Below are positions 1 through 47,145 of a stretch of 64,000 nt of DNA, piece by piece. The notes under the pieces were generated by a model, which saw nothing but the letters and a program-made list of their open reading frames with translations, was not told the origin of the DNA and did not search any database. Numbering within the stretch: position 1 is the stretch's first letter; each line of letters begins with the position of its first letter. Source of the stretch: a virus (Duplodnaviria; Heunggongvirae; Uroviricota; Caudoviricetes); IMG/VR virus record IMGVR_UViG_2651869695_000003, one strand, 5' to 3'. The position numbers and the translations under genes were made by a program.

Positions 1-566
1 GCTGGGTGTTGTCTGTTGTGCGTCGGGATCTCGGTTTTGATGATAGTCACGTTGTGACAATACCGGAACTGTGCTGGTGGCTGATTCGTAATGACCTGGC
101 GGATGCCTTACCGGAAAGTGCAGCCCGTAAGGCACTGAGATTACCGAAGCCTGTTGTGCAGGCGGTCACCCGGGAAAGTGACCTTGTGCCTTCGGTTCCT
201 GCCACCAGCATTATCCAGGATAAAGCGAAAAAGGTGCTGGCGCTGAAAGTGGATCCGGAGTCGCTGGAGTCTTTTATGTTACGCCCAAAACGCCGCCGCT
301 GGGTTAATGAAAAGTACACGCGCTGGGTTAAGACACAGCCGTGTGCATGTTGTGGAAAGCCTGCTGATGATCCCCACCACCTGATAGGTCACGGTCAGGG
401 TGGAATGGGTACAAAAGCGCATGACCTCTTTGTGTTGCCTTTGTGCAGAAAGCATCACGACGAGCTGCATGCGGATACCGTGGCATTTGAAGAGAAGTAT
501 GGCTCCCAACTGGAGCTGATATTTCGTTTTATCGATCGCGCGCTGGCGATTGGGGTGTTGGCCTGA
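1..566 (+). CDS. DUF968-like protein with Cys/His-rich HNH-like motif, 5'-truncated by window edge
   Basis: C-terminal 186 aa of the 331-aa protein encoded in full at 46150..47145; motif CACCGKPADDPHHLIGHG...CRKHHDELH; sits just upstream of Q. Confidence 0.5.
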   Translation, partial: WVLSVVRRDLGFDDSHVVTIPELCWWLIRNDLADALPESAARKALRLPKPVVQAVTRESDLVPSVPATSIIQDKAKKVLALKVDPESLESFMLRPKRRRWVNEKYTRWVKTQPCACCGKPADDPHHLIGHGQGGMGTKAHDLFVLPLCRKHHDELHADTVAFEEKYGSQLELIFRFIDRALAIGVLA

Positions 567-583
567 TTTGGTGGAGAAAGTTG

Positions 584-949
584 ATGCGTGATATTCAGAT
601 GGTTCTGGAGCGTTGGGGAGCATGGGCGGCGAGTGATAGTTCTGGAGTAGACTATTCGCCTATAGCTGCTGGGTTTAAGGGGCTTCTTCCCTACACAAGC
701 AAAACACGTCAGGCTTGTTCAGATAGTGATGCATTAATTATTGAAGGTTGTCTTGCTCGTCTAAAGCAAAAAAAGCCAGATGAGCACTCGCTGCTTGTGG
801 CACATTATTTATACAGAATATCCAAGCGTAAGATTGCAAAGGTGCGTGGAAAGGATGAAAAATTGGTACGCATAGAAATACAACTAGCCGAAGGATTTAT
901 TGATGGTTGCCTTTCAATGTTGGATTTTAACCTTGAAATGGACGCTTAG
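584..949 (+). CDS. Antitermination protein Q (lambdoid late-gene regulator)
   Basis: N-terminus MRDIQMVLERWGAWAA recalled as Q-family signature; position between nin-like genes and the lysis cassette; ATG at 584 preferred over track start 581. Confidence 0.6.
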   Translation: MRDIQMVLERWGAWAASDSSGVDYSPIAAGFKGLLPYTSKTRQACSDSDALIIEGCLARLKQKKPDEHSLLVAHYLYRISKRKIAKVRGKDEKLVRIEIQLAEGFIDGCLSMLDFNLEMDA

Positions 950-984
950 GGTTGCACAGGTTGGCCCCATATGAGGCCAACCTG

Positions 985-1446
985 TCACAAGTGGGGGAAG
1001 ATTTTTCGTAACACTAACCAACACCTTCCGAAGGTATATAGCGAAATTATAAGGGAGGATAAGCCTAACAGTATGAACAGGAAATCAATAGGTTTGCCCG
1101 CAACAATAACATCATCAGGTAGAAACATCGCTATCAATGGAAATATACATGCGACGATGAGAGTTAACCCTGTTGAAAGTAATCTATTTACCAGAGTTGG
1201 TAACACGTTGTTTTGCTTAAGGGCATTAATTGCTCCTTCCTTATCGCTGTTTGCACTACTAAATATAGATATTGCAGCCAGAACAAAACCAAACAGGATG
1301 CCTGATATAGTCGAGAGCACCCCCGCTGTTGTGAGTACGTCAGCATGCTTCATCGGTTTAAACAGTTTTGTCGCTGCATAGGTCAACAGAATCCAGAGGA
1401 CGCATTTCCAGAGAAAAGTGGCTAATTCTCTCATTGTGTCCTCCAT
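985..1446 (-). CDS. Small integral membrane protein (about 4 predicted TM helices), candidate RexB-like partner
   Basis: 153 aa with four hydrophobic stretches; low-GC; immediately downstream of the 313-aa ORF on the same strand, opposite to phage late genes. Confidence 0.45.
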   Translation of the reverse strand: MEDTMRELATFLWKCVLWILLTYAATKLFKPMKHADVLTTAGVLSTISGILFGFVLAAISIFSSANSDKEGAINALKQNNVLPTLVNRLLSTGLTLIVACIFPLIAMFLPDDVIVAGKPIDFLFILLGLSSLIISLYTFGRCWLVLRKIFPHL

Positions 1447-1455
1447 GCTTGGTTA

Positions 1456-2397
1456 TTAGTCTCTGCTAGCGAGCTCATACTGTGCAAGATAGTTCGCGTT
1501 ATCAATTTTAGCAGATATCATCGCCGTTCTGATATCAGAATCGGATGGATAACCGCTTTTGACAATGATTGTCTTTGTACTGACCAATACTTGGTCAAGT
1601 AGACTTTTGGGCGTTCTATTGGATGGCTCTGTTACATCAATTTTTTTAATTTTTAGACCTCCAGAACCTTTTGGAAAAAGTTCAAGTAGTTCCTTAATAG
1701 CATCGGTGACAGAAGTTTTTAGATAGTTAAACCCTTGTTTTTTCGGGCGAATCCGACCTCGCATATTTAATCTTAGATGCGACCCGCCCATACCAACAAC
1801 CATGTCAATAATTTCATTAGCTAAAGGGTTTTTAATCTTATAATTAGCTTTGTTAAAGTTTCTTGGAGCAGCAACTATAAGATCGAAACTACGTAGGATA
1901 TTTCCGTCCTCAAGCAGTTCCTTCATGCTCTCTTGTTTCCAAATGGCTTCAAAAGTGACGCTTTTTAAATCAGTTTTGTTATACAAAATGAATGCCAGAT
2001 CATTTACTTTGGGCCCTATATGGTTGAGGGTCATAGCTAATAAGTCCGTTTCGTAGTAATAGATAAAATATGTTCTTTCAACTACAGAATCTTTATCATT
2101 TAAAGGAATTGTTCTCTCACTACCTGTAGCATCCTCGATGAACGGTAGTAGGCATTCCCTTCTCCACGATACGTAACCAAAGTAACATTGCAGTGTGGTA
2201 TCTTTTTGAAGAATAACTAACTTTAACCCTCGACTTGGGGTGTCTGTTGTGTAAGTTATTGGAAAAGTTACAGTATCTGCTGTGGTCATTTGCTCAAAGG
2301 CTAGTTTTGCAGCAGATGTGCCATATTTTTTGCTTCCATTACCAGTGAAAAAACCAACTCTCACTCGCCTGGTTTTATTCTTATTTTCTGTACTCAT
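1456..2397 (-). CDS. Hypothetical 313-aa protein, candidate RexA-like abortive-infection component
   Basis: Low-GC ORF in moron position between Q and holin; soluble protein followed by 4-TM protein mimics rexA-rexB architecture; similarity to RexA is by eye only. Confidence 0.4.
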   Translation of the reverse strand: MSTENKNKTRRVRVGFFTGNGSKKYGTSAAKLAFEQMTTADTVTFPITYTTDTPSRGLKLVILQKDTTLQCYFGYVSWRRECLLPFIEDATGSERTIPLNDKDSVVERTYFIYYYETDLLAMTLNHIGPKVNDLAFILYNKTDLKSVTFEAIWKQESMKELLEDGNILRSFDLIVAAPRNFNKANYKIKNPLANEIIDMVVGMGGSHLRLNMRGRIRPKKQGFNYLKTSVTDAIKELLELFPKGSGGLKIKKIDVTEPSNRTPKSLLDQVLVSTKTIIVKSGYPSDSDIRTAMISAKIDNANYLAQYELASRD

Positions 2398-2520
2398 TAT
2401 CGATCCGAAATAATTTTAGCAACCGTGTGAAAAATACAACAAAAAAAAGAGGAAATCATTAGCGCGGTCCGCAAAAAACATTGTAATCTGTTAAGAGTGG
2501 TTACTTCGCCACACAGCTTA

Positions 2521-2550
2521 AACCCGCCGTCGAGCGGGTTTTGTCGTTTC
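2521..2550 (+). terminator. Rho-independent terminator-like hairpin, candidate tR' of the late leader
   Basis: AACCCGC-cgtcga-GCGGGTT followed by TTGTCGTTTC, about 145 bp upstream of the holin start. Confidence 0.35.
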
Positions 2551-2693
2551 TGTGGCTGGGGATTCGTTGGTCCTGGCCTATTCCGCAGTTCTCCATCGGT
2601 TCGGCTTCTTTGATGTTTCCGCTTCTGATTTGCGGTACATGATGTTCCCTCAATTTGCACCTGCTGTATCAGCGAGGTGAGAGATAACTACAA

Positions 2694-3020
2694 ATGCCTC
2701 ATAACCCAAATACCTGGCTGGAGTTGGTCCAGAGCTGGTGGCGTGGAGACACACCGCTGGGCGCAGTGATTATGTCGATCGTTATGGCTGGCTTGCGCAT
2801 TGCCTATTTTGGCGGTGGTGGTGGCTGGAAACGAAAAACGCTCGAGATTTTGCTCTGTGGTGCTCTGACGCTGACTTTTGCATCCGCTCTTGAGTATGTC
2901 GGATGGCCTAAATCTCTTTCTGTTGCCATTGGTGGCGGCGTTGGGCTGATCGGGGTCGATGCTATTCGTGGGGCTGCAATGAGAGTAATCGGTAATAAGT
3001 TTGGTGGCTCTAAGGAGTAA
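2694..3020 (+). CDS. Holin
   Basis: 108 aa, hydrophobic segments, first gene of lysis cassette directly before the R-like endolysin. Confidence 0.7.
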   Translation: MPHNPNTWLELVQSWWRGDTPLGAVIMSIVMAGLRIAYFGGGGGWKRKTLEILLCGALTLTFASALEYVGWPKSLSVAIGGGVGLIGVDAIRGAAMRVIGNKFGGSKE

Positions 3021-3023
3021 TTT

Positions 3024-3506
3024 ATGCAGGTACTAAATTCCCAGCGTAAAGCTTTCCTCGATATGGTGGCATGGTCAGAAGGAACGGATAACGGGCGACA
3101 ACCGACACGTAACCACGGTTATGACGTTATTGTCGGAGGTGAACTGTTCACTGATTACTCCGATCACCCTCGCAAACTTGTCACGCTAAACCCGAAACTT
3201 AAATCAACAGCCGCAGGACGTTATCAGCTTCTTTCACGCTGGTGGGATGCTTACCGTAAGCAGCTTGGGCTGAAAGACTTCTCTCCAAAAAGCCAGGATG
3301 CTGTGGCATTGCAGCAGATTAAAGAGCGTGGTGCTTTACCGATGATTGATCGCGGCGATATCCGTCAGGCTATTGATCGTTGCAGCAATATCTGGGCGTC
3401 ATTGCCGGGCGCTGGTTATGGTCAGTTCGAACATAAGGTTGACAGCCTGATTGAAAAATTCAAAGAATCGGGCGGAACGGTCAGAGAAATTCAGCTATAT
3501 GAGTAG
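3024..3506 (+). CDS. R: Endolysin, lambda R-like lytic transglycosylase
   Basis: Near-identical over long stretches to lambda R as recalled ([92 protein letters not shown]). Confidence 0.85.
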
Positions 3507-3963
3507 AGTAACTGCGATTCTGTCCTCTCTGGTTATCTGCACCATCGTCTGCCTATCATGGGCTGTTAATCATTATCGTGATAACGCCATCGCCTACAAA
3601 GAACAGCGCGATAAAGCGAAGGAAAAACTCAGCCAGGCGAACGCCACCATTACTGAGATGCAGCAGCGCCAGCGTGATGTTTCTGCGCTCGATGCGAAAT
3701 ACACCGGAGAACTTGCAAATGCTAAAGCAACTATTGAACAGCTTCAGCGTGATGTTGCTGTTGGCACTAAGCGGCTGTTCCTCGCCGCTAGTTGCCCGAG
3801 AGTGCAATCAACGACCATTACCACCAGCCTGGATGATGCTACCGCCCCCCGACTTACTGACACCGCTCAACGGGATTATTTCACCCTCAGAGAGAGAATT
3901 GAAATCAGTTATAAACAGATAAGAGCATTGCAGGACTATATCTCTAGTCAGTGTGAAAAATAA
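3499..3963 (+). CDS. Rz: Rz i-spanin
   Basis: [31 protein letters not shown] matches lambda Rz N-terminus; start moved to internal Met overlapping R stop. Confidence 0.85.
3719..3922 (+). CDS. Rz1: Rz1 o-spanin lipoprotein, embedded in +1 frame of Rz
   Basis: Signal/lipobox LLLALSGC followed by proline-rich [26 protein letters not shown] as in lambda Rz1. Confidence 0.7.
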
Positions 3964-4044
3964 AATTGCTTTCGATGTATGGATCTGGACATCTTTTTTT
4001 TCTACTATGCTGACTGAGAATTGAAACGTATATGGATATTCTAT

Positions 4045-4803
4045 ATGAAAAGAAAAAAATTAGAAGGTCCCGGGTGTGAATCATATGAAGGGTTAGATGT
4101 TGAATATTATATTGATTCCGAAACGGGGGAATTTAAAGCGGTTTATACATTCAATAATGAAATTGTAGATCGCATAAAATTGAGTGGGCGTATTGCCGAT
4201 AGAGCATCTTCACTGTCCCTAATTCATAGGGACTTAAAAAGTGCTAAAGAGTGGTACCAAATAGCTAATGAACTGGCAGGGAGAAACGAATTAAGGACAG
4301 ATGGCAAGTTATACGGGAATATACTTGATCTAGATTTATCAAGTGAAATTAGAGCGTTATTTGTGGCAAGCCTAACGTTTTATGGTAAAGCTTTCTCTGA
4401 AGCTAAAGGGAGAAAGTTAAAGATGGAGCGTGATTGGCTTGATTCTGAATATTTTGGGTTGCATGACTGTATTATTAACTACAGGCATAATTTTGCAGCA
4501 CATAGCGGCAACCAAGACTATGAGTCAGCAGAAACTTCATTGTTACTAATAAGGAAAAATGGGAAAACATTTTATCAAGCAGTGACAGATAGAAAACAAC
4601 TGAGCATGATTGGTGTCGAGGACGAGCATGTTGATATGATTAATTTATTTGAACATGCGATACAGGTTGTTGAGAAAAAATATAATGAAACATTAGAGAG
4701 AATTAGAACCTATGTCATGCAAAAGAGTTATTCTTTTTGGTGTTTAGCTGCCACAGGGAAAGATCCCGTCAATTTAGATAAGTTAAATAAGAAGAAAAAA
4801 TAA
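4045..4803 (+). CDS. Hypothetical protein, AT-rich moron (candidate abortive-infection or defence gene)
   Basis: Low GC compared with flanking phage genes; followed by a candidate terminator (4840..4869); lies between Rz and HNH/terS; contains YRHNFAAH (R-x5-H). Confidence 0.5.
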   Translation: MKRKKLEGPGCESYEGLDVEYYIDSETGEFKAVYTFNNEIVDRIKLSGRIADRASSLSLIHRDLKSAKEWYQIANELAGRNELRTDGKLYGNILDLDLSSEIRALFVASLTFYGKAFSEAKGRKLKMERDWLDSEYFGLHDCIINYRHNFAAHSGNQDYESAETSLLLIRKNGKTFYQAVTDRKQLSMIGVEDEHVDMINLFEHAIQVVEKKYNETLERIRTYVMQKSYSFWCLAATGKDPVNLDKLNKKKK

Positions 4804-4839
4804 ACCTACTCTTCACATTAGTAACATTAGTAGATGCTA

Positions 4840-4869
4840 AGCCACTAGCAATCGATGGTGGCTTTTTTA
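4840..4869 (+). terminator. Rho-independent terminator after moron gene
   Basis: AGCCAC-loop-GTGGCT followed by TTTTTTATT. Confidence 0.5.
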
Positions 4870-4882
4870 TTGGAGCTTACCA

Positions 4883-5233
4883 ATGCCACCACGAACCCCA
4901 AAAGCCTGCCGTGTTCGCGGCTGCCGCTCTACAACCACAGACCCGTCAGGCTACTGCGAAAGCCACAAAAGCGAAGGCTGGAAGCAATACAAGCCAGGTC
5001 AGTCCCGTCATCAGCGCGGTTATGGTTCGAAGTGGGACGCTATCCGCGCGCGTGTGCTGAAGCGTGACAAAGGTTTATGTCAGTTATGTCTGCGTGCCGG
5101 TGTGGTGCGTGAGGCGAAAACCGTTGACCACATCATCCCTAAAGCGCATGGCGGCACTGATGCCGACTGTAATCTGCAGAGTCTGTGTTGGCCGTGTCAT
5201 AAGGCGAAGACGGCCCGTGAACGGTTAAAGTGA
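4883..5233 (+). CDS. HNH endonuclease (terminase-associated)
   Basis: Cys/His motifs CRVRGC...C and DHIIPKAHGG...CWPCH; directly upstream of cos-like region and terS as in HK97-like phages. Confidence 0.8.
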   Translation: MPPRTPKACRVRGCRSTTTDPSGYCESHKSEGWKQYKPGQSRHQRGYGSKWDAIRARVLKRDKGLCQLCLRAGVVREAKTVDHIIPKAHGGTDADCNLQSLCWPCHKAKTARERLK

Positions 5234-5239
5234 TAATAA

Positions 5240-5340
5240 CTCTCAACTGTCTGAGGGGAGGGGCGGGTCACATCCCTGTGACCTGACGTCTTCCGGACTG
5301 CCCGCCCCATCGTTTTTTTATACCCGCGAAAAATGAAATT
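5240..5340. other. Candidate cos / packaging site region
   Basis: GC-rich dyad GGGGCGGG...CCCGCCCC enclosing palindrome GTCACAtcccTGTGAC between HNH and terS. Confidence 0.3.
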
Positions 5341-5358
5341 TAACCAGGAGTGCCGCAT

Positions 5359-5853
5359 ATGGCTGGAACGACGGGGCGTTCCGGGCGTCGCCCCAAGCCA
5401 ACGGCGCGCAAGGCGCTGGCCGGAAATCCCGGCAAGCGAGCCCTGAACAAAGATGAACCTGTTTTTACGCCCATCAAAGGTGTTGAGCCACCGGAGTGGT
5501 TCGCTGAAGAAGATCTCCCTCTCGCCACGATCATGTGGCAACTGACAACCAAAGAACTCTGCGGTCAGGGCCTGCTGTGCGTGACTGACCTCGCGGTGCT
5601 TGAGCGGTGGTGCGTGGCCTACGAGTTCTGGCGACGTGCCGTGAAAAATATTGCCAGACAGGGCAACACCATCACCGGTGCAATGGGCGGTATGGTCAAA
5701 AATCCGGAGCTGACCGCCAAAAAAGAACAGGAGTCCGAGATGAGCAGTACGGGGGCAATGCTCGGACTCGACCCCAGCAGCCGCCAGCGTCTGATTGGCC
5801 TGGCGGGGAAGAAGAAAGCCACTAACCCGTTTCTGAAAATCATCGAATCATGA
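5359..5853 (+). CDS. Terminase small subunit
   Basis: Basic N-terminus, immediately upstream of and overlapping terL; ATG at 5359 with GGAG upstream. Confidence 0.7.
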
Positions 5854-7583
5854 GCCGGAAATCTTACCCCAACGTAAATGCTGCCAATCAGTATGCCCGG
5901 GATGTCGTGCGCGGAAAGATTGTGGCCTGCCAGTTTGTGATTCAGGCCTGCCAGCGCCATCTTGATGACCTGATGGCGGAAAAAAGTAAGTCGTTTCGTT
6001 ACCGCTTCGACAAGGACCTGGCTGAACGGGCCGCCAAATTTATTCAGCTGTTGCCGCACACCAAGGGTGAGTGGGCATTCAAGAGGATGCCCATCACGCT
6101 GGAGCCGTGGCAGCTCTTTGTGATCTGCTGCGCGTTTGGCTGGGTCAATAAAGGCTCCCGGCTGCGCCGCTTCAGGGAGGTGTATACCGAAATCCCCCGT
6201 AAGAACGGCAAATCGGCAATCTCTGCCGGTGTCGCTCTGTATTGTTTTGCCTGTGATAACGAGTTCGGCGCGGAAGTGTATTCCGGTGCCACGACGGAGA
6301 AACAGGCATGGGAAGTCTTTCGCCCGGCGCGACTGATGTGTAAACGCACACCAATGCTGACGGAAGCGTTCGGGATTGAGGTTAACGCCTCAAACATGAA
6401 CCGTCCGGAGGATGGCGCGCGGTTTGAACCGCTGATCGGTAACCCCGGTGATGGTTCATCACCCCACTGTGCGGTGGTGGATGAATATCACGAGCACGCC
6501 ACCGATGCGCTTTACACCACGATGCTTACCGGGATGGGGGCGCGACGTCAGCCACTGATGTGGGCCATTACTACTGCCGGGTACAACATTGAGGGGCCGT
6601 GCTACGACAAGCGGCGGGAAGTTATCGAGATGCTCAACGGGTCGGTGCCTAACGATGAACTGTTCGGGATCATCTATACCGTTGATGAAGGTGACGACTG
6701 GACCGACCCGCAGGTGCTGGAAAAAGCCAATCCAAATATTGGCGTGTCGGTTTATCGCGAATTTTTGTTAAGTCAGCAACAGCGTGCGAAAAATAACGCC
6801 CGTCTGGCAAACGTCTTTAAAACAAAACACCTCAATATCTGGGTGTCGGCGCGTTCGGCGTATTTCAACCTGGTGAGCTGGCAGAGCTGCGAGGATAAAT
6901 CACTGACCCTTGAGCAGTTCGAGGGGCAGCCGTGCATTCTGGCCTTTGACTTGGCGCGTAAACTGGATATGAACAGCATGGCGCGACTTTATACCCGCGA
7001 GATTGACGGTAAAACGCATTACTACAGTGTGGCCCCGCGTTTCTGGGTACCGTATGACACGGTGTACAGCGTCGAGAAAAATGAAGATCGACGGACAGCC
7101 GAACGCTTTCAGAAATGGGTGGAAATGGGCGTTCTGACCGTTACCGATGGTGCGGAAGTGGATTATCGCTACATCCTCGAGGAGGCCAAAGCGGCGAACA
7201 AAATCAGCCCGGTCAGTGAGTCACCCATCGACCCCTTCGGGGCGACCGGGCTGTCACATGACCTTGCTGATGAAGACCTGAACCCCATCACTATCATTCA
7301 GAACTACACCAACATGTCCGATCCGATGAAAGAGCTGGAAGCGGCAATTGAATCGGGGCGCTTTCATCATGATGGCAATCCCATCATGACCTGGTGTATC
7401 GGCAACGTGGTCGGCAAAACCATTCCGGGTAACGATGATGTGGTGAAGCCCGTCAAAGAGCAGGCGGAAAACAAAATCGATGGTGCAGTTGCGCTGATTA
7501 TGGCGGTTGGCAGAGCCATGCTGTACGAGAAAGAAGACACGCTGTCTGACCACATTGAGTCCTATGGGATCCGCTCGCTTTAA
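5850..7583 (+). CDS. Terminase large subunit
   Basis: 577 aa; ATPase-like motifs (RKNGKS, VVDEYHE) and nuclease domain; canonical position. Confidence 0.9.
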
Positions 7584-7594
7584 CTGAGGTAATT

Positions 7595-7777
7595 ATGATC
7601 ATGCTGATTCTCGCGCCTCTGGTGGGCGTGCTGGGGGCGCTTTTGCTGGCGTATGGTGCCTGGCTGATTTATCCCCCGGCGGGGTTTGTTGTTGCCGGGG
7701 CGTTGTGTCTGTTCTGGTCGTGGCTGGTGGCGCGATATCTCGACCGTACACAGTCGTCTGTCGGCGGAGGTAAATAG
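7595..7777 (+). CDS. Small hydrophobic protein
   Basis: 60 aa, two hydrophobic segments, between terL and portal. Confidence 0.4.
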
Positions 7778-9018
7778 TGTTCTTTTCGGGATTATTTCAA
7801 CGAAAAAGTGACGCACCAGTGACCACGCCAGCAGAGCTGGCGGATGCTATCGGGTTGTCCTACGACACCTATATCGGAAAGCAGATCAGCAGCCAGCGGG
7901 CCATGCGACTGACGGCGGTTTTTTCCTGCGTCAGGGTGCTGGCAGAGTCGGTCGGGATGTTGCCCTGCAATCTGTATCACCTGAACGGCAGCCTGAAAAA
8001 GAGAGCCACCGGCGAGCGTCTGCATAAGCTGATCTCCACGCATCCCAATGGCTATATGACGCCGCAGGAGTTCTGGGAGCTGGTGGTCACCTGTCTGTGC
8101 TTGCGGGGAAACTTTTACGCCTACAAAGTGAAAGGATTTGGCGAAGTGGCTGAACTGCTGCCCGTCGATCCCGGCTGTGTGGTACCGAAGCTTAACAGTA
8201 GCTGGGAGCCGGTCTATCAGGTCACATTCCCGGACGGCTCCACGGATGTACTGAGCCAGGAAGATATCTGGCATGTGCGCACGCTGACGCTGGACGGTCT
8301 GGTGGGACTGAATCCCATCGCCTATGCCCGCGAGGCAATATCGCTGGCAGCTGCGACCGAAGAGCACGGGGCCAGACTGTTCAGCAATGGTGCGGTGACG
8401 TCCGGTGTGTTGCGTACAGAGCAGACGCTGTCGGATCAGGCTTATGAGCGCCTGAAGAAAGATTTTGAGGAGCGTCACACCGGGCTTGGCAATGCTCACC
8501 GCCCGATGATCCTTGAGATGGGGCTGGACTGGAAGTCGATGGCGCTGAACGCCGAGGACAGCCAGTTCCTGGAAACCCGCAAGTTTCAGCTTGAAGAAAT
8601 CTGTCGTCTGTTCCGGGTGCCATTGCACATGGTGCAGAACACCGATCGCGCCACCTTCAACAATATCGAAGAGCTGGGGCTGGGATTTATCAACTATTCA
8701 CTGGTGCCGTATCTGACCCGCATTGAGCAGCGGATCAACACCGGACTGGTACGAAAAAGTAAGCAGGGCGTTTATTACGCCAAATTTAACGCCGGGGCGT
8801 TACTGCGCGGGGATATGAAGTCCCGTTTTGAAGCCTACGCCACCGGTATCAACTGGGGAATTTACTCTCCCAATGACTGCCGCGACCTGGAAGATATGAA
8901 TCCGCGTCCCGGTGGGGATGTCTATCTCACGCCGATGAATATGACCACGAAACCCTCCGATGGCAGTAAAGCCGGTAAGCAGAAGGATAACGCCAATGCA
9001 GACGAAACAACGTCTTGA
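7777..9018 (+). CDS. Portal protein (HK97 family)
   Basis: 413 aa; follows terminase; GTG start overlapping previous stop. Confidence 0.85.
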   Translation: MFFSGLFQRKSDAPVTTPAELADAIGLSYDTYIGKQISSQRAMRLTAVFSCVRVLAESVGMLPCNLYHLNGSLKKRATGERLHKLISTHPNGYMTPQEFWELVVTCLCLRGNFYAYKVKGFGEVAELLPVDPGCVVPKLNSSWEPVYQVTFPDGSTDVLSQEDIWHVRTLTLDGLVGLNPIAYAREAISLAAATEEHGARLFSNGAVTSGVLRTEQTLSDQAYERLKKDFEERHTGLGNAHRPMILEMGLDWKSMALNAEDSQFLETRKFQLEEICRLFRVPLHMVQNTDRATFNNIEELGLGFINYSLVPYLTRIEQRINTGLVRKSKQGVYYAKFNAGALLRGDMKSRFEAYATGINWGIYSPNDCRDLEDMNPRPGGDVYLTPMNMTTKPSDGSKAGKQKDNANADETTS

Positions 9019-9646: not shown

Positions 9647-9660
9647 TCAGGAGAAATACG

Positions 9661-10866: not shown

Positions 10867-10873
10867 TCACTCA

Positions 10874-10894
10874 GGGGCGCGGAACCGCGCCCCC
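10874..10894 (+). terminator. GC-rich hairpin after capsid gene
   Basis: GGGGCGCGG-aa-CCGCGCCCC; no strong T-tract, so likely a stabilising or partial terminator. Confidence 0.3.
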
Positions 10895-10915
10895 TGTTCT
10901 GACGGGTGAAGAATC

Positions 10916-11116
10916 ATGATCCTGAAACAAGATCTGAAATGGTCACCGGACGGTATGCGTGTTGAGGTCATTCGGGCCGGTGAGTATGACGACGGGGCGC
11001 TTCCTGCCCGGGTGCAGGAGATTGCACTTCAGGCCGGGTTAGCAGAGCGCGGAATCAGTGCAAAAAGCAGTAAAGCGGCAAAAGAGAAAAAAGCCACGAC
11101 CAGTAAAGAGGGCTGA
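10916..11116 (+). CDS. Hypothetical small protein
   Basis: 66-aa ORF between capsid and head-tail connector genes. Confidence 0.35.
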   Translation: MILKQDLKWSPDGMRVEVIRAGEYDDGALPARVQEIALQAGLAERGISAKSSKAAKEKKATTSKEG

Positions 11117-11118
11117 GT

Positions 11119-35597: not shown

Positions 35598-35599
35598 AC

Positions 35600-35800: not shown

Positions 35801-35849
35801 GATTCTTCACCCGTCAGAACAGGGGGCGCGGTTCCGCGCCCCTGAGTGA

Positions 35850-37055: not shown

Positions 37056-37069
37056 CGTATTTCTCCTGA

Positions 37070-38939: not shown

Positions 38940-39121
38940 TATTTACCTCCGCCGACAGACGACTGTGTACGGTCGAGATATCGCGCCACCAGCCACGACC
39001 AGAACAGACACAACGCCCCGGCAACAACAAACCCCGCCGGGGGATAAATCAGCCAGGCACCATACGCCAGCAAAAGCGCCCCCAGCACGCCCACCAGAGG
39101 CGCGAGAATCAGCATGATCAT
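38939..39121 (-). CDS. Small hydrophobic protein, right-arm copy
   Basis: Translation identical to 7595..7777. Confidence 0.4.
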
Positions 39122-39132
39122 AATTACCTCAG

Positions 39133-40866
39133 TTAAAGCGAGCGGATCCCATAGGACTCAATGTGGTCAGACAGCGTGTCTTCTTTCTCGTACAGCATGG
39201 CTCTGCCAACCGCCATAATCAGCGCAACTGCACCATCGATTTTGTTTTCCGCCTGCTCTTTGACGGGCTTCACCACATCATCGTTACCCGGAATGGTTTT
39301 GCCGACCACGTTGCCGATACACCAGGTCATGATGGGATTGCCATCATGATGAAAGCGCCCCGATTCAATTGCCGCTTCCAGCTCTTTCATCGGATCGGAC
39401 ATGTTGGTGTAGTTCTGAATGATAGTGATGGGGTTCAGGTCTTCATCAGCAAGGTCATGTGACAGCCCGGTCGCCCCGAAGGGGTCGATGGGTGACTCAC
39501 TGACCGGGCTGATTTTGTTCGCCGCTTTGGCCTCCTCGAGGATGTAGCGATAATCCACTTCCGCACCATCGGTAACGGTCAGAACGCCCATTTCCACCCA
39601 TTTCTGAAAGCGTTCGGCTGTCCGTCGATCTTCATTTTTCTCGACGCTGTACACCGTGTCATACGGTACCCAGAAACGCGGGGCCACACTGTAGTAATGC
39701 GTTTTACCGTCAATCTCGCGGGTATAAAGTCGCGCCATGCTGTTCATATCCAGTTTACGCGCCAAGTCAAAGGCCAGAATGCACGGCTGCCCCTCGAACT
39801 GCTCAAGGGTCAGTGATTTATCCTCGCAGCTCTGCCAGCTCACCAGGTTGAAATACGCCGAACGCGCCGACACCCAGATATTGAGGTGTTTTGTTTTAAA
39901 GACGTTTGCCAGACGGGCGTTATTTTTCGCACGCTGTTGCTGACTTAACAAAAATTCGCGATAAACCGACACGCCAATATTTGGATTGGCTTTTTCCAGC
40001 ACCTGCGGGTCGGTCCAGTCGTCACCTTCATCAACGGTATAGATGATCCCGAACAGTTCATCGTTAGGCACCGACCCGTTGAGCATCTCGATAACTTCCC
40101 GCCGCTTGTCGTAGCACGGCCCCTCAATGTTGTACCCGGCAGTAGTAATGGCCCACATCAGTGGCTGACGTCGCGCCCCCATCCCGGTAAGCATCGTGGT
40201 GTAAAGCGCATCGGTGGCGTGCTCGTGATATTCATCCACCACCGCACAGTGGGGTGATGAACCATCACCGGGGTTACCGATCAGCGGTTCAAACCGCGCG
40301 CCATCCTCCGGACGGTTCATGTTTGAGGCGTTAACCTCAATCCCGAACGCTTCCGTCAGCATTGGTGTGCGTTTACACATCAGTCGCGCCGGGCGAAAGA
40401 CTTCCCATGCCTGTTTCTCCGTCGTGGCACCGGAATACACTTCCGCGCCGAACTCGTTATCACAGGCAAAACAATACAGAGCGACACCGGCAGAGATTGC
40501 CGATTTGCCGTTCTTACGGGGGATTTCGGTATACACCTCCCTGAAGCGGCGCAGCCGGGAGCCTTTATTGACCCAGCCAAACGCGCAGCAGATCACAAAG
40601 AGCTGCCACGGCTCCAGCGTGATGGGCATCCTCTTGAATGCCCACTCACCCTTGGTGTGCGGCAACAGCTGAATAAATTTGGCGGCCCGTTCAGCCAGGT
40701 CCTTGTCGAAGCGGTAACGAAACGACTTACTTTTTTCCGCCATCAGGTCATCAAGATGGCGCTGGCAGGCCTGAATCACAAACTGGCAGGCCACAATCTT
40801 TCCGCGCACGACATCCCGGGCATACTGATTGGCAGCATTTACGTTGGGGTAAGATTTCCGGCTCAT
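39133..40866 (-). CDS. Terminase large subunit, right-arm copy
   Basis: Translation identical to 5850..7583. Confidence 0.9.
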
Positions 40867-41357
40867 GATTCGATGATTTTCAGAAACGGGTTAGTGGCTT
40901 TCTTCTTCCCCGCCAGGCCAATCAGACGCTGGCGGCTGCTGGGGTCGAGTCCGAGCATTGCCCCCGTACTGCTCATCTCGGACTCCTGTTCTTTTTTGGC
41001 GGTCAGCTCCGGATTTTTGACCATACCGCCCATTGCACCGGTGATGGTGTTGCCCTGTCTGGCAATATTTTTCACGGCACGTCGCCAGAACTCGTAGGCC
41101 ACGCACCACCGCTCAAGCACCGCGAGGTCAGTCACGCACAGCAGGCCCTGACCGCAGAGTTCTTTGGTTGTCAGTTGCCACATGATCGTGGCGAGAGGGA
41201 GATCTTCTTCAGCGAACCACTCCGGTGGCTCAACACCTTTGATGGGCGTAAAAACAGGTTCATCTTTGTTCAGGGCTCGCTTGCCGGGATTTCCGGCCAG
41301 CGCCTTGCGCGCCGTTGGCTTGGGGCGACGCCCGGAACGCCCCGTCGTTCCAGCCAT
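40863..41357 (-). CDS. Terminase small subunit, right-arm copy
   Basis: Translation identical to 5359..5853. Confidence 0.7.
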
Positions 41358-41482
41358 ATGCGGCACTCCTGGTTAAATTTCATTTTTCGCGGGTATAAAA
41401 AAACGATGGGGCGGGCAGTCCGGAAGACGTCAGGTCACAGGGATGTGACCCGCCCCTCCCCTCAGACAGTTGAGAGTTATTA

Positions 41483-41833
41483 TCACTTTAACCGTTCACG
41501 GGCCGTCTTCGCCTTATGACACGGCCAACACAGACTCTGCAGATTACAGTCGGCATCAGTGCCGCCATGCGCTTTAGGGATGATGTGGTCAACGGTTTTC
41601 GCCTCACGCACCACACCGGCACGCAGACATAACTGACATAAACCTTTGTCACGCTTCAGCACACGCGCGCGGATAGCGTCCCACTTCGAACCATAACCGC
41701 GCTGATGACGGGACTGACCTGGCTTGTATTGCTTCCAGCCTTCGCTTTTGTGGCTTTCGCAGTAGCCTGACGGGTCTGTGGTTGTAGAGCGGCAGCCGCG
41801 AACACGGCAGGCTTTTGGGGTTCGTGGTGGCAT
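41483..41833 (-). CDS. HNH endonuclease, right-arm copy
   Basis: Translation identical to 4883..5233. Confidence 0.8.
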   Translation of the reverse strand: MPPRTPKACRVRGCRSTTTDPSGYCESHKSEGWKQYKPGQSRHQRGYGSKWDAIRARVLKRDKGLCQLCLRAGVVREAKTVDHIIPKAHGGTDADCNLQSLCWPCHKAKTARERLK

Positions 41834-41912
41834 TGGTAAGCTCCAATAAAAAAGCCACCATCGATTGCTAGTGGCTTAGCATCTACTAATGTTACTAATG
41901 TGAAGAGTAGGT

Positions 41913-42671
41913 TTATTTTTTCTTCTTATTTAACTTATCTAAATTGACGGGATCTTTCCCTGTGGCAGCTAAACACCAAAAAGAATAACTCTTTTGCATG
42001 ACATAGGTTCTAATTCTCTCTAATGTTTCATTATATTTTTTCTCAACAACCTGTATCGCATGTTCAAATAAATTAATCATATCAACATGCTCGTCCTCGA
42101 CACCAATCATGCTCAGTTGTTTTCTATCTGTCACTGCTTGATAAAATGTTTTCCCATTTTTCCTTATTAGTAACAATGAAGTTTCTGCTGACTCATAGTC
42201 TTGGTTGCCGCTATGTGCTGCAAAATTATGCCTGTAGTTAATAATACAGTCATGCAACCCAAAATATTCAGAATCAAGCCAATCACGCTCCATCTTTAAC
42301 TTTCTCCCTTTAGCTTCAGAGAAAGCTTTACCATAAAACGTTAGGCTTGCCACAAATAACGCTCTAATTTCACTTGATAAATCTAGATCAAGTATATTCC
42401 CGTATAACTTGCCATCTGTCCTTAATTCGTTTCTCCCTGCCAGTTCATTAGCTATTTGGTACCACTCTTTAGCACTTTTTAAGTCCCTATGAATTAGGGA
42501 CAGTGAAGATGCTCTATCGGCAATACGCCCACTCAATTTTATGCGATCTACAATTTCATTATTGAATGTATAAACCGCTTTAAATTCCCCCGTTTCGGAA
42601 TCAATATAATATTCAACATCTAACCCTTCATATGATTCACACCCGGGACCTTCTAATTTTTTTCTTTTCAT
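41913..42671 (-). CDS. Hypothetical AT-rich moron protein, right-arm copy
   Basis: Translation identical to 4045..4803. Confidence 0.5.
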   Translation of the reverse strand: MKRKKLEGPGCESYEGLDVEYYIDSETGEFKAVYTFNNEIVDRIKLSGRIADRASSLSLIHRDLKSAKEWYQIANELAGRNELRTDGKLYGNILDLDLSSEIRALFVASLTFYGKAFSEAKGRKLKMERDWLDSEYFGLHDCIINYRHNFAAHSGNQDYESAETSLLLIRKNGKTFYQAVTDRKQLSMIGVEDEHVDMINLFEHAIQVVEKKYNETLERIRTYVMQKSYSFWCLAATGKDPVNLDKLNKKKK

Positions 42672-42752
42672 ATAGAATATCCATATACGTTTCAATTCTC
42701 AGTCAGCATAGTAGAAAAAAAAGATGTCCAGATCCATACATCGAAAGCAATT

Positions 42753-43217
42753 TTATTTTTCACACTGACTAGAGATATAGTCCTGCAATGCTCTTATCTG
42801 TTTATAACTGATTTCAATTCTCTCTCTGAGGGTGAAATAATCCCGTTGAGCGGTGTCAGTAAGTCGGGGGGCGGTAGCATCATCCAGGCTGGTGGTAATG
42901 GTCGTTGATTGCACTCTCGGGCAACTAGCGGCGAGGAACAGCCGCTTAGTGCCAACAGCAACATCACGCTGAAGCTGTTCAATAGTTGCTTTAGCATTTG
43001 CAAGTTCTCCGGTGTATTTCGCATCGAGCGCAGAAACATCACGCTGGCGCTGCTGCATCTCAGTAATGGTGGCGTTCGCCTGGCTGAGTTTTTCCTTCGC
43101 TTTATCGCGCTGTTCTTTGTAGGCGATGGCGTTATCACGATAATGATTAACAGCCCATGATAGGCAGACGATGGTGCAGATAACCAGAGAGGACAGAATC
43201 GCAGTTACTCTACTCAT
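42753..43217 (-). CDS. Rz: Rz i-spanin, right-arm copy
   Basis: Translation identical to 3499..3963. Confidence 0.85.
42794..42997 (-). CDS. Rz1: Rz1 o-spanin, right-arm copy
   Basis: Translation identical to 3719..3922. Confidence 0.7.
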
Positions 43218-43692
43218 ATAGCTGAATTTCTCTGACCGTTCCGCCCGATTCTTTGAATTTTTCAATCAGGCTGTCAACCTTATGTTCGAACTGACCATAA
43301 CCAGCGCCCGGCAATGACGCCCAGATATTGCTGCAACGATCAATAGCCTGACGGATATCGCCGCGATCAATCATCGGTAAAGCACCACGCTCTTTAATCT
43401 GCTGCAATGCCACAGCATCCTGGCTTTTTGGAGAGAAGTCTTTCAGCCCAAGCTGCTTACGGTAAGCATCCCACCAGCGTGAAAGAAGCTGATAACGTCC
43501 TGCGGCTGTTGATTTAAGTTTCGGGTTTAGCGTGACAAGTTTGCGAGGGTGATCGGAGTAATCAGTGAACAGTTCACCTCCGACAATAACGTCATAACCG
43601 TGGTTACGTGTCGGTTGTCGCCCGTTATCCGTTCCTTCTGACCATGCCACCATATCGAGGAAAGCTTTACGCTGGGAATTTAGTACCTGCAT
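43210..43692 (-). CDS. R: Endolysin R-like, right-arm copy
   Basis: Translation identical to 3024..3506. Confidence 0.85.
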
Positions 43693-43695
43693 AAA

Positions 43696-44022
43696 TTACT
43701 CCTTAGAGCCACCAAACTTATTACCGATTACTCTCATTGCAGCCCCACGAATAGCATCGACCCCGATCAGCCCAACGCCGCCACCAATGGCAACAGAAAG
43801 AGATTTAGGCCATCCGACATACTCAAGAGCGGATGCAAAAGTCAGCGTCAGAGCACCACAGAGCAAAATCTCGAGCGTTTTTCGTTTCCAGCCACCACCA
43901 CCGCCAAAATAGGCAATGCGCAAGCCAGCCATAACGATCGACATAATCACTGCGCCCAGCGGTGTGTCTCCACGCCACCAGCTCTGGACCAACTCCAGCC
44001 AGGTATTTGGGTTATGAGGCAT
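43696..44022 (-). CDS. Holin, right-arm copy
   Basis: Translation identical to 2694..3020. Confidence 0.7.
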   Translation of the reverse strand: MPHNPNTWLELVQSWWRGDTPLGAVIMSIVMAGLRIAYFGGGGGWKRKTLEILLCGALTLTFASALEYVGWPKSLSVAIGGGVGLIGVDAIRGAAMRVIGNKFGGSKE

Positions 44023-44318
44023 TTGTAGTTATCTCTCACCTCGCTGATACAGCAGGTGCAAATTGAGGGAACATCATGTACCGCAAATCAGAAGCGGAAA
44101 CATCAAAGAAGCCGAACCGATGGAGAACTGCGGAATAGGCCAGGACCAACGAATCCCCAGCCACAGAAACGACAAAACCCGCTCGACGGCGGGTTTAAGC
44201 TGTGTGGCGAAGTAACCACTCTTAACAGATTACAATGTTTTTTGCGGACCGCGCTAATGATTTCCTCTTTTTTTTGTTGTATTTTTCACACGGTTGCTAA
44301 AATTATTTCGGATCGATA

Positions 44319-45260
44319 ATGAGTACAGAAAATAAGAATAAAACCAGGCGAGTGAGAGTTGGTTTTTTCACTGGTAATGGAAGCAAAAAATATGGCACAT
44401 CTGCTGCAAAACTAGCCTTTGAGCAAATGACCACAGCAGATACTGTAACTTTTCCAATAACTTACACAACAGACACCCCAAGTCGAGGGTTAAAGTTAGT
44501 TATTCTTCAAAAAGATACCACACTGCAATGTTACTTTGGTTACGTATCGTGGAGAAGGGAATGCCTACTACCGTTCATCGAGGATGCTACAGGTAGTGAG
44601 AGAACAATTCCTTTAAATGATAAAGATTCTGTAGTTGAAAGAACATATTTTATCTATTACTACGAAACGGACTTATTAGCTATGACCCTCAACCATATAG
44701 GGCCCAAAGTAAATGATCTGGCATTCATTTTGTATAACAAAACTGATTTAAAAAGCGTCACTTTTGAAGCCATTTGGAAACAAGAGAGCATGAAGGAACT
44801 GCTTGAGGACGGAAATATCCTACGTAGTTTCGATCTTATAGTTGCTGCTCCAAGAAACTTTAACAAAGCTAATTATAAGATTAAAAACCCTTTAGCTAAT
44901 GAAATTATTGACATGGTTGTTGGTATGGGCGGGTCGCATCTAAGATTAAATATGCGAGGTCGGATTCGCCCGAAAAAACAAGGGTTTAACTATCTAAAAA
45001 CTTCTGTCACCGATGCTATTAAGGAACTACTTGAACTTTTTCCAAAAGGTTCTGGAGGTCTAAAAATTAAAAAAATTGATGTAACAGAGCCATCCAATAG
45101 AACGCCCAAAAGTCTACTTGACCAAGTATTGGTCAGTACAAAGACAATCATTGTCAAAAGCGGTTATCCATCCGATTCTGATATCAGAACGGCGATGATA
45201 TCTGCTAAAATTGATAACGCGAACTATCTTGCACAGTATGAGCTCGCTAGCAGAGACTAA
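44319..45260 (+). CDS. Hypothetical 313-aa protein, candidate RexA-like, right-arm copy
   Basis: Translation identical to 1456..2397. Confidence 0.4.
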   Translation: MSTENKNKTRRVRVGFFTGNGSKKYGTSAAKLAFEQMTTADTVTFPITYTTDTPSRGLKLVILQKDTTLQCYFGYVSWRRECLLPFIEDATGSERTIPLNDKDSVVERTYFIYYYETDLLAMTLNHIGPKVNDLAFILYNKTDLKSVTFEAIWKQESMKELLEDGNILRSFDLIVAAPRNFNKANYKIKNPLANEIIDMVVGMGGSHLRLNMRGRIRPKKQGFNYLKTSVTDAIKELLELFPKGSGGLKIKKIDVTEPSNRTPKSLLDQVLVSTKTIIVKSGYPSDSDIRTAMISAKIDNANYLAQYELASRD

Positions 45261-45269
45261 TAACCAAGC

Positions 45270-45731
45270 ATGGAGGACACAATGAGAGAATTAGCCACTT
45301 TTCTCTGGAAATGCGTCCTCTGGATTCTGTTGACCTATGCAGCGACAAAACTGTTTAAACCGATGAAGCATGCTGACGTACTCACAACAGCGGGGGTGCT
45401 CTCGACTATATCAGGCATCCTGTTTGGTTTTGTTCTGGCTGCAATATCTATATTTAGTAGTGCAAACAGCGATAAGGAAGGAGCAATTAATGCCCTTAAG
45501 CAAAACAACGTGTTACCAACTCTGGTAAATAGATTACTTTCAACAGGGTTAACTCTCATCGTCGCATGTATATTTCCATTGATAGCGATGTTTCTACCTG
45601 ATGATGTTATTGTTGCGGGCAAACCTATTGATTTCCTGTTCATACTGTTAGGCTTATCCTCCCTTATAATTTCGCTATATACCTTCGGAAGGTGTTGGTT
45701 AGTGTTACGAAAAATCTTCCCCCACTTGTGA
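45270..45731 (+). CDS. 4-TM membrane protein, candidate RexB-like, right-arm copy
   Basis: Translation identical to 985..1446. Confidence 0.45.
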   Translation: MEDTMRELATFLWKCVLWILLTYAATKLFKPMKHADVLTTAGVLSTISGILFGFVLAAISIFSSANSDKEGAINALKQNNVLPTLVNRLLSTGLTLIVACIFPLIAMFLPDDVIVAGKPIDFLFILLGLSSLIISLYTFGRCWLVLRKIFPHL

Positions 45732-45766
45732 CAGGTTGGCCTCATATGGGGCCAACCTGTGCAACC

Positions 45767-46132
45767 CTAAGCGTCCATTTCAAGGTTAAAATCCAACATT
45801 GAAAGGCAACCATCAATAAATCCTTCGGCTAGTTGTATTTCTATGCGTACCAATTTTTCATCCTTTCCACGCACCTTTGCAATCTTACGCTTGGATATTC
45901 TGTATAAATAATGTGCCACAAGCAGCGAGTGCTCATCTGGCTTTTTTTGCTTTAGACGAGCAAGACAACCTTCAATAATTAATGCATCACTATCTGAACA
46001 AGCCTGACGTGTTTTGCTTGTGTAGGGAAGAAGCCCCTTAAACCCAGCAGCTATAGGCGAATAGTCTACTCCAGAACTATCACTCGCCGCCCATGCTCCC
46101 CAACGCTCCAGAACCATCTGAATATCACGCAT
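45767..46132 (-). CDS. Antitermination protein Q, right-arm copy
   Basis: Translation identical to 584..949. Confidence 0.6.
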   Translation of the reverse strand: MRDIQMVLERWGAWAASDSSGVDYSPIAAGFKGLLPYTSKTRQACSDSDALIIEGCLARLKQKKPDEHSLLVAHYLYRISKRKIAKVRGKDEKLVRIEIQLAEGFIDGCLSMLDFNLEMDA

Positions 46133-46149
46133 CAACTTTCTCCACCAAA

Positions 46150-47145
46150 TCAGGCCAACACCCCAATCGCCAGCGCGCGATCGATAAAACGAAATATCAG
46201 CTCCAGTTGGGAGCCATACTTCTCTTCAAATGCCACGGTATCCGCATGCAGCTCGTCGTGATGCTTTCTGCACAAAGGCAACACAAAGAGGTCATGCGCT
46301 TTTGTACCCATTCCACCCTGACCGTGACCTATCAGGTGGTGGGGATCATCAGCAGGCTTTCCACAACATGCACACGGCTGTGTCTTAACCCAGCGCGTGT
46401 ACTTTTCATTAACCCAGCGGCGGCGTTTTGGGCGTAACATAAAAGACTCCAGCGACTCCGGATCCACTTTCAGCGCCAGCACCTTTTTCGCTTTATCCTG
46501 GATAATGCTGGTGGCAGGAACCGAAGGCACAAGGTCACTTTCCCGGGTGACCGCCTGCACAACAGGCTTCGGTAATCTCAGTGCCTTACGGGCTGCACTT
46601 TCCGGTAAGGCATCCGCCAGGTCATTACGAATCAGCCACCAGCACAGTTCCGGTATTGTCACAACGTGACTATCATCAAAACCGAGATCCCGACGCACAA
46701 CAGACAACACCCAGCGGGCACAGTTATCCGTTGCCATTGATTCCAGCCGTTCCGTGAACTGATCGCGCAGCTGGTTATCGCAGTGCCAGCACAAACGGAT
46801 TGCGCCCGGAGCGTGTCGCATTGTTGTCATGTTCTCGCTGTGCCAGTCGGAATGAGGCCACTGGCAGCCTTTTTCACGAAGTAACCAGCTTTCAAGACAT
46901 TCCACGCCACCAGCACGACGGATCACTGCCTCATTGCGGAATACGGCCCGAACGGCAGGATCATCCGCCAGCGGTTGTGATGCCGCCGGAACGGCACCAC
47001 TGGCGAAAGATGAATAACGTTCCGGCTCAGGCTCCAGCAGGACACGCCCCTGCATAAACAGGGGCATCAACTCTGAACCTGGCCTGAACAATACGATCCC
47101 CATACGCGGGGCAATTTCAGGGGTCAGTAGTGCTCTCACGGTCAC
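46150..47145 (-). CDS. DUF968-like protein with Cys/His-rich HNH-like C-terminus (full length)
   Basis: 331 aa; C-terminal 186 aa identical to left-arm partial ORF; the N-terminal part lies beyond the mirror boundary. Confidence 0.5.
   Translation of the reverse strand: MTVRALLTPEIAPRMGIVLFRPGSELMPLFMQGRVLLEPEPERYSSFASGAVPAASQPLADDPAVRAVFRNEAVIRRAGGVECLESWLLREKGCQWPHSDWHSENMTTMRHAPGAIRLCWHCDNQLRDQFTERLESMATDNCARWVLSVVRRDLGFDDSHVVTIPELCWWLIRNDLADALPESAARKALRLPKPVVQAVTRESDLVPSVPATSIIQDKAKKVLALKVDPESLESFMLRPKRRRWVNEKYTRWVKTQPCACCGKPADDPHHLIGHGQGGMGTKAHDLFVLPLCRKHHDELHADTVAFEEKYGSQLELIFRFIDRALAIGVLA

Follow-up and report, generated by a model that had tools for sequence, protein, structure and literature searches.

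The closest described counterpart of the locus studied here is the P segment of e14 in E. coli K-12 (stfP-tfaP / tfaE-stfE), with its invertase PinE. In e14, a ymfQ-like gene is followed by the constant part of the tail-fibre gene, a crossover site, variable fibre ends in mirror arrangement, each with a small ORF downstream, and a second crossover site. The segment has a length of 1,797 bp, and e14 itself is a defective prophage integrated at icd. In such systems, the Fis-bound recombinational enhancer normally lies within the 5' part of the invertase gene. The G segment of Mu (Gin) and the C segment of P1 (Cin) are built along similar lines, with 26-bp quasi-palindromic sites carrying a central dinucleotide (consensus in PMC4134206, Table 3) and a constant N-terminal fibre part placed in frame with alternative C-terminal parts and their cognate chaperones. 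Mixed cassette orientation within one culture is also a known source of confusion in assembly. [quoted passage not shown] 2014, PMC4134206).

The DNA analysed here, referred to as the window, is a stretch of 64,000 nucleotides that was exactly identical to bases 26..64025 of the 64,025-bp draft contig JHST01000046.1. It contains an ordinary invertible tail-fibre cassette of the e14 type, which forms the centre between two long mirror-image arms; the arms end at the two crossover sites of this cassette (Table 1). The order of elements matched that of e14, from the ymfQ-like gene to the second site, including the small ORF after each variable fibre end, and in close relatives pinE comes next. 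The distance between the two central dinucleotides was 1,715 bp. The locus differs from e14 in that the prophage around the cassette is a seemingly complete SfV/SfII-like myovirus integrated at ssrA, that the variable ends are tips of 225 aa (glycine-rich) and 118 aa, unlike those of e14, and that the deposited contig has a mirrored late region, judged to be an artefact, in place of pinE. From Mu and P1, the locus differs in phage backbone and cassette content.

Table 1. Positions of the features in the window
Feature	Position	Strand	Description
Left arm	1..22514	+	Late region of the prophage a second time, in reverse complement, from the 3' part of the DUF968 gene through Q, moron, lysis, terminase, head, contractile tail and baseplate to the fibre constant part
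Isomer-1 tail-fibre gene	22210..23193	+	327 aa; constant 102 codons (22210..22514) plus Sv
Left crossover site	22487..22512	+	26 bp; central dinucleotide 22499..22500
Cassette body	22515..24201		Sv and 87-aa ORF; Tfa and Sv' on the opposite strand
87-aa ORF	23193..23456	+	Downstream of Sv
Tfa chaperone	23428..23847	-	139 aa; cognate to Sv'
Isomer-2 tail-fibre gene	23844..24506	-	220 aa; constant 102 codons (24202..24506) plus Sv'
Right arm	24202..46715	-	Late region, contiguous with the prophage early region
Right crossover site	24204..24229	-	Exact mirror copy of the left site; central dinucleotide 24216..24217
Early/lysogeny region, single copy	46716..58210		Rest of DUF968 gene through 272-aa ORF
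Tyrosine integrase	56177..57352	+	Within the early/lysogeny region
att remnant	58217..58254	+	Last 38 nt of ssrA (tmRNA); integrase-side prophage end

The original prediction, made from the sequence of the window, included two fibre ORFs with their first 102 codons in common, and these were found on opposite strands. In the isomer-1 gene, the constant part (Sc) continues in frame into Sv, a glycine-rich domain (Pfam Gly_rich_2, E = 4.3e-7), and the gene is annotated as stfP / phage tail protein in relatives. In the isomer-2 gene, it continues into Sv', for which a weak match to Pfam Gp53-like_C was obtained; the complete 220-aa protein was matched exactly in the relatives L005 and L006, where it lies in native context and is followed by pin. 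The variable ends are in mirror arrangement, each with its downstream ORF. The ORF after Sv' encodes a Tfa chaperone (Pfam Caudo_TAP, E = 2.6e-23). For the 87-aa ORF after Sv, a match to the C-terminal end of Caudo_TAP stayed below threshold (E = 0.0055); from its position, this ORF probably encodes the assembly factor cognate to the glycine-rich fibre tip.

The left crossover site reads CTCTCGAAAACC-TT-GGTTTGGGAGAA, and the two inverted 26-bp sites fit the consensus of the Din family with identical central TT/AA. A 16-bp inverted repeat common to both sites (22499..22514 at the left site) differed at a single base from TTGGTTTGGGAGAAGG, the repeat given for the e14 P segment in PMC12529663 (15 of 16 identical). 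The right site of native prophages has CGTTTATGAAAA as its outer half, on the pin side, whereas in the window this is the Sc-side half (alignment with L005 and L001), and the divergence of the window from these native relatives starts directly after the central dinucleotide. Both cassette orientations occur, one in the complete genome H1 and the other in H2-H4, L005 and L006. Both fusion junctions, Sc-Sv and Sc-Sv', were present within JHST01000046.1 itself, which suggests that the cassette was switching in the overnight culture of this EPEC isolate. The underlying biology is real and already known: a tail-fibre host-range switch of the e14/Mu type, carried by an SfV-like prophage that appears intact.

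The original prediction had also described a mirror-image duplication of the phage late region, ~22.5 kb in size, with arms that diverge only in a central segment of 1.69 kb. This structure was confirmed in the deposited sequence. In a base-by-base test of x against 46716-x, window 1..22514 and the reverse complement of 24202..46715 were identical throughout, with 0 mismatches. The arms thus form a perfect inverted repeat of 22,514 bp per arm with 100% arm-arm identity, while the centre (1,687 bp) was non-palindromic, differing at 631 of 843 mirrored positions. The sign of the GC skew flipped at the palindrome centre. The left arm was indeed found to be cut, as had been noted, the cut being that of the source contig, which ends 25 bp past window position 1, and not that of the window edge.

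Taken with the data on how the genome was assembled, these features make it very probable that the palindrome arose as an artefact of assembly, from an invertible tail-fibre switch that is itself real and ordinary, and is not a real feature of the genome. The right arm is the genuine late region of the prophage, and the left arm is judged to be an artefactual duplicate. The JHST record belongs to EPEC strain 102535 and consists of 97 contigs (PMC4433268, S2 Table). The strain was sequenced on the Illumina HiSeq2000 with 300-bp inserts, and contigs from Velvet and contigs from Edena were merged with Minimus (PMC4433268, S1 Methods). In a k-mer test against a single-copy model, no substring of window 1..46715 up to 1,730 bp long was missing from both isomers. 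To tell this model from the palindrome, a fragment would need to span 22493 to 24223 and so measure 1,731 bp or more. Since the isomers account for every substring up to that length and the inserts were of 300 bp, no read pair could have backed the join. The draft data were therefore too short for the discriminating distance, and the pipeline used gives more than one representation of each locus; the copies showed zero divergence, the breakpoints lay at the borders of the invertible segment, and one copy stopped at the contig end.

The same evidence bears on the suggestion that the palindrome could be a chimeric long read or a mis-assembly, of which the second part is favoured. Palindromic chimeras, whether from library or PCR chimeras or as a palindromic long read, are a known class of artefact, and would act at the level of the template instead of contig merging or graph traversal. 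For strain 102535, however, no long reads were used, and 100-nt reads from 300-bp inserts cannot carry a chimera that places arms of 22.5 kb. A non-palindromic centre of 1.7 kb bounded by recombination sites is also unlike the outcome of a hairpin chimera. An origin in chimeric templates is thus given very little weight.

For the preferred reading, assembly of a single-copy locus, the most likely route is a join, by way of the cassette, between contigs in which the cassette lay in opposite orientations. The SfV/SfII/e14-like prophage at ssrA is most likely present once in strain 102535. The 1.7-kb cassette would be inverted by PinE, or by another Pin in trans, and as a result of this inversion the DNA of an overnight culture would comprise both isomers, with reads backing both the Sc-Sv and the Sc-Sv' junction. 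If two contigs both ended in the cassette, with its orientation reversed in one relative to the other, their alignment on the same strand would leave non-matching overhangs of 1.7 kb, an invalid overlap; aligned on the reverse strand, they would give a clean end-to-end overlap of 1.7 kb at 100%. A merge via the reverse-strand overlap would produce the late region, the cassette and the reverse-complemented late region, and the single-copy late region would be shown twice, once per assembler, with zero differences. In a less specific variant, the graph walk of one assembler may itself have gone from Sc through the cassette to the reverse complement of Sc. A false join via the inverted repeat alone was rejected, the native 16-bp repeat being considered too short for assembly k-mer/overlap lengths; if it is too short to bridge, both junction types must derive from real reads. 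The situation resembles that of EC958 in that mixed cassette orientation confused the assembly, but there the alternative forms appeared as separate small contigs, whereas in the short-read, two-assembler merge of strain 102535 they were apparently fused into one palindrome.

The position at which the left arm stops, in the KilA-N/DUF968/Q module, is a plausible break point for a contig; this module is multi-copy in most E. coli genomes. Alignment ends were not clustered exactly at the mirror position of the left contig end (~46740), where a sharp repeat boundary was sought.

The original prediction had attributed the structure, if real, to recombination between gix-like sites or to replication template switching. 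The arms do end at sites of the Gin/Pin type, and a real rearrangement is nonetheless disfavoured relative to mis-assembly. In the first form of this proposal, two prophage copies, either in a tandem or double lysogen or within a replicating concatemer, would have undergone Pin-catalysed exchange between the left site of one and the right site of the other, with inversion of the DNA between the recombined sites. One of the resulting junctions would read late-Sc-cassette-Sc'-late' and the second pin'-cassette-pin. Judged by sequence alone, the window fits such a head-to-head junction equally well: the arms stop precisely at the crossover sites, the right one of which has the perfect Sc-type form expected after site-specific exchange, and two inverted sites on one molecule are an established substrate geometry for the Gin/Hin/Pin systems. 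However, normal inversion of a single copy yields identical junction sequences, a library of 300-bp inserts is unable to link both arms, and a true perfect repeat of 22.5 kb would not be resolvable into two placed copies by a short-read assembler. A genuine second copy would be expected to run on into its own early region and flank; here, the left copy is not seen past the contig end, and the contig contains no second early region, int or att.

Complete genomes were also searched for the join. With a 3.5-kb query (21600..25100), none of 5,426 complete E. coli genomes matched the palindromic join at ≥80% coverage, and the best complete-genome matches comprised one arm plus the cassette only. 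No independent, long-read-resolved example of the structure was therefore obtained among these genomes. Based on these results, a real Pin-made inverted duplication is regarded as very unlikely. That strain 102535 itself holds a real junction, a stable 22.5-kb Pin-made palindrome with both fibre variants expressed at once and the neighbouring invertase gone, is rated slightly lower still. The further idea that recombination between the arms would flip the centre and swap receptor-binding domains is unneeded, because normal Pin inversion already swaps them.

The second form of the proposal, a real inverted duplication arising by template switching or snap-back at short inverted repeats, or by homologous recombination between inverted prophage copies, is considered close to negligible. 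Short inverted repeats around a spacer are known substrates for template switching (compare tandem-inversion duplications), and perfect arm identity is what a very recent event would leave. All objections to the Pin-mediated duplication hold here too, including the inability of the short-insert data to back the join. In addition, the junction matched the invertase crossover point and the junction of the natural isomer to the base, a coincidence for which a 16-bp repeat offers no particular reason.

If the palindrome is an artefact of assembly, the true neighbour of the cassette on the left-arm side should be pinE, followed by GIY-YIG, methylase, EcoRII, ssrA and smpB. This corresponds to the near-identical relative L005, which had 1 mismatch in 12,013 bp against the right arm and in which the cassette is followed by pin, GIY-YIG, methylase, EcoRII, ssrA and smpB. 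The invertase directly adjoined the cassette in L005, L006, L001 and L002, and pinE did so in the complete genomes H1 and H2. In L005 and in relatives from complete genomes, this position was thus occupied by pinE and not by another late region. No invertase gene was found in the window (tblastn with L005 Pin, best E = 4.2), as the artefact model predicts. The expected order in strain 102535 would accordingly start, on the pin side, with smpB, ssrA, EcoRII, methylase, GIY-YIG, pinE, crossover site, cassette and crossover site, and would continue with the fibre constant part, tail, head, lysis, early genes, int, att remnant, IS100 and the EspC island.

The main value of the finding lies in database hygiene. 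GenBank JHST01000046.1 holds ~22.5 kb of prophage twice, and hence roughly 30 duplicated genes, and the sequence that truly adjoins the cassette on the pinE side is missing from it. Analyses of copy number, synteny and prophage boundaries can be misled by this record. It further provides a clear example of how mixed-orientation invertible segments and merged contig sets can give palindromic contigs.

The host element is an SfV/SfII/e14-like prophage integrated at ssrA. As had been predicted, the right arm runs on into an early region, integrase and att site; the genes identified were KilA-N, PerC-like, S24 repressor, DUF2303 and the tyrosine integrase, together with a low-GC block, and they are followed by the ssrA remnant. 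The intact ssrA sits at the pin-side prophage end in L005 and L006. No usable hit came from scanning the moron ORFs with PADLOC and Pfam. The late region is akin to that of the phages vB_EcoM-689R6, SfII, SfI and SfV, which combine lambdoid early genes with a Mu-like contractile tail, and shared 97-98% nucleotide identity with them over most of its length. The prophage differs from this group in its integration at ssrA, in having no O-antigen modification genes by int and in carrying other morons. Beyond the att remnant, the contig continues with IS100 and then the flank of the EspC island.

A base-by-base comparison of window positions 1..22514 with the reverse complement of 24202..46715 gave no mismatches in 22,514 bp, and the 1,687 bp between these two arms (22515..24201) was found to be non-palindromic. 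The sign of the GC skew switched at the palindrome centre, across which two fibre ORFs face each other; their first 102 codons are common and the sequences diverge beyond. As a description of the deposited sequence, the original prediction of a late region duplicated in mirror image and joined fibre to fibre was accurate.

The centre is built like a Gin/Pin-type invertible tail-fibre cassette. On one strand, the constant part of the fibre gene leads into a variable glycine-rich end (Pfam Gly_rich_2), with an 87-aa ORF after it; the opposite strand encodes a tail-fibre chaperone (Pfam Caudo_TAP) and another variable fibre end. The 16-bp repeats, TTGGTTTGGGAGAAGC and GCTTCTCCCAAACCAA, matched the inverted repeats of the e14 P segment, as quoted in PMC12529663, at 15 of 16 bases. 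The cassette is an invertible host-range switch of the e14/Mu type, the biology of which is already known. An invertase gene was absent from the whole window. The convergent genes for the 87-aa product and the 139-aa Tfa share 29 bp at their 3' ends (23428..23456), and both products terminate in a similar W-P-x-x-P motif.

Coordinates of features in the palindrome, the prophage and its flank
Feature	Position	Strand	Remarks
Fibre ORF, 327 aa	22210..23193	+	Faces second fibre ORF across centre
Fibre ORF, 220 aa	23844..24506	-	Faces first fibre ORF across centre
26-bp quasi-palindromic crossover site, CTCTCGAAAACC-TT-GGTTTGGGAGAA	22487..22512		Arm end; mirror image ends other arm
Two-gene insert, 313 aa + 153 aa	44319..45731	+	Mirrored copy 985..2397 (-)
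PerC-domain protein, 164 aa	48676..49170	-	Pfam PerC, E = 8e-9; early region
Low-GC block, 37-39%	54000..58210		Adjoins integrase
ssrA 3'-end remnant, 38 nt	58217..58254		Integrase-side prophage end
IS100	58582..60381		Directly after ssrA remnant

Most of the late region showed 97-98% identity to SfV, SfII, SfI and vB_EcoM-689R6, and the backbone was assigned by sequence to this phage type, which combines lambdoid early genes with a contractile tail like that of Mu. A 3.5-kb query across both junctions had matches in 2,623 of 5,426 complete E. coli genomes, with coverage of at least 80% in none of the 5,426. The best matches consisted of one arm plus the cassette, ending ~20 bp beyond the far crossover site. 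Among these genomes, H1 covered window 21600..24222 and H2-H4 covered 22494..25100, so both orientations of the one cassette exist in nature. In the best-matching genomes, the cassette was followed by pinE, encoding a serine site-specific recombinase, and a LEM-3-like GIY-YIG gene. The draft relative L005 (GCA_021537415.1) differed by one base in 12,013 bp of right arm and cassette, and continued past the cassette with pin, GIY-YIG, cytosine methylase, EcoRII, an intact ssrA and smpB. The window and the native loci part immediately past the crossover site's central dinucleotide, which is the strand-exchange point of Din-family invertases. As in L005, the cassette should in reality have the ~5-kb pinE-to-ssrA stretch on its left.

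A real head-to-head junction, formed by Pin recombining the sites of two prophage copies, would give an identical junction sequence and is therefore compatible with the sequence taken by itself; however, it requires a second prophage copy, of which there was no trace, and a data type able to resolve a 22.5-kb perfect repeat, and such a structure was absent from the 5,426 complete genomes. Template switching as the source of a real inverted duplication meets the same objections and leaves unexplained why the breakpoint falls on the invertase crossover point. Real structures, all taken together, were considered very improbable.

Both fibre proteins had exact matches on contig JHST01000046.1 (64,025 bp; NCBI GCA_001266115.1), and window 12210..33193 was identical to the locus retrieved from it; the window therefore represents bases 26..64025 of this contig. 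The left arm, previously thought to be cut by the window edge, is indeed cut, but the contig itself ends 25 bp further out. The genome under JHST00000000 is that of EPEC strain 102535, a GEMS strain from an asymptomatic infection in The Gambia, and comprises 4.79 Mb in 97 contigs (PMC4433268, S2 Table). DNA was obtained from a single colony grown overnight in culture, paired-end reads with 300-bp inserts were produced on an Illumina HiSeq2000, and Velvet and Edena v3 contigs were merged with Minimus (PMC4433268, supplementary methods). A palindromic chimeric long read, one of the causes initially proposed, is excluded, since the strain was sequenced without long reads.

A single-copy prophage was modelled from the right arm, cassette and right flank of the window plus the pin-side flank of L005, in both isomers, related by inversion between the two central dinucleotides. 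Any substring no longer than 1,730 bp from window 1..46715 occurred in one or other isomer; to be palindrome-specific, a fragment had to be 1,731 bp or longer and to span ~22493 to 24223. A 300-bp-insert library has no such fragments, and hence the contig cannot serve as evidence of two copies, real or not.

The mis-assembly alternative was strongly favoured: 300-bp inserts cannot support the join, and in L005 the place of the left arm is taken by pin. The palindrome is very probably an assembly artefact and, with high probability, not a real genomic feature. As the native 16-bp repeat was judged too short for false joins at the assembly k-mer/overlap lengths, the culture must have held both isomers, from which we infer an active Pin switch; the cassette thus appears active in strain 102535. 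In the most likely mechanism, Minimus would have been given every locus twice, once from each assembler. Two contigs ending in opposite cassette orientations would, on the same strand, align with 1.7-kb mismatching overhangs (an improper overlap), and on opposite strands would overlap perfectly end to end over 1.7 kb. A merge through the opposite-strand overlap would give exactly the deposited structure, and would explain why there are two copies (one per assembler) without any divergence, why the breakpoints fall at the crossover sites and why pinE is missing. The arm terminus would be the place where one assembler's contig ended; the left-arm end falls in a KilA-N/DUF968/Q module, of which most E. 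coli genomes have multiple copies. A single-assembler graph walk from the constant fibre part through the cassette to the reverse complement of that part would have the same outcome, the two routes being indistinguishable here. Forde et al. [quoted passage not shown] The root cause is the same as for the palindrome of strain 102535.

The right arm was correctly predicted to run on to int and attR: the integrase side of the prophage ends at the ssrA remnant, directly followed by IS100 and the EspC-island flank. Within 58217..64000, the prophage abuts another ssrA-associated element; IS100 is followed by a stretch with a match to a degenerate integrase pseudogene, and by the SRPBCC pseudogene found ahead of espC in strains A25 and E2348/69. 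At the native pin-side end, outside the window, the near-identical relatives L005 and L006 (12075..16549) have, between pinE and ssrA, the LEM-3-like GIY-YIG gene plus a restriction-modification pair made up of a cytosine methylase and EcoRII; L001 and L002, relatives at other integration sites, are without this pair.

The two-gene insert lies between the Q antiterminator and holin, the classic moron position; it is oriented against the late genes, and GC is lower here (40-44% in 2-kb windows). Neither product had a Pfam match above the cut-off or a PADLOC match, and the insert is conserved in relatives L008-L017. The low-GC block encodes a 183-aa ORF with a sub-threshold YfbR/HD-like match, a 296-aa ORF with a weak, possibly spurious PADLOC match to Csx27 (E = 1.4e-5), and ORFs of 81 and 272 aa, the latter between int and the att remnant. 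These four ORFs, none with a firm family assignment, could be lysogenic-conversion or exclusion cargo. The PerC-domain protein is encoded in a prophage of an EPEC strain, and prophage PerC/Pch homologues are known LEE regulators.
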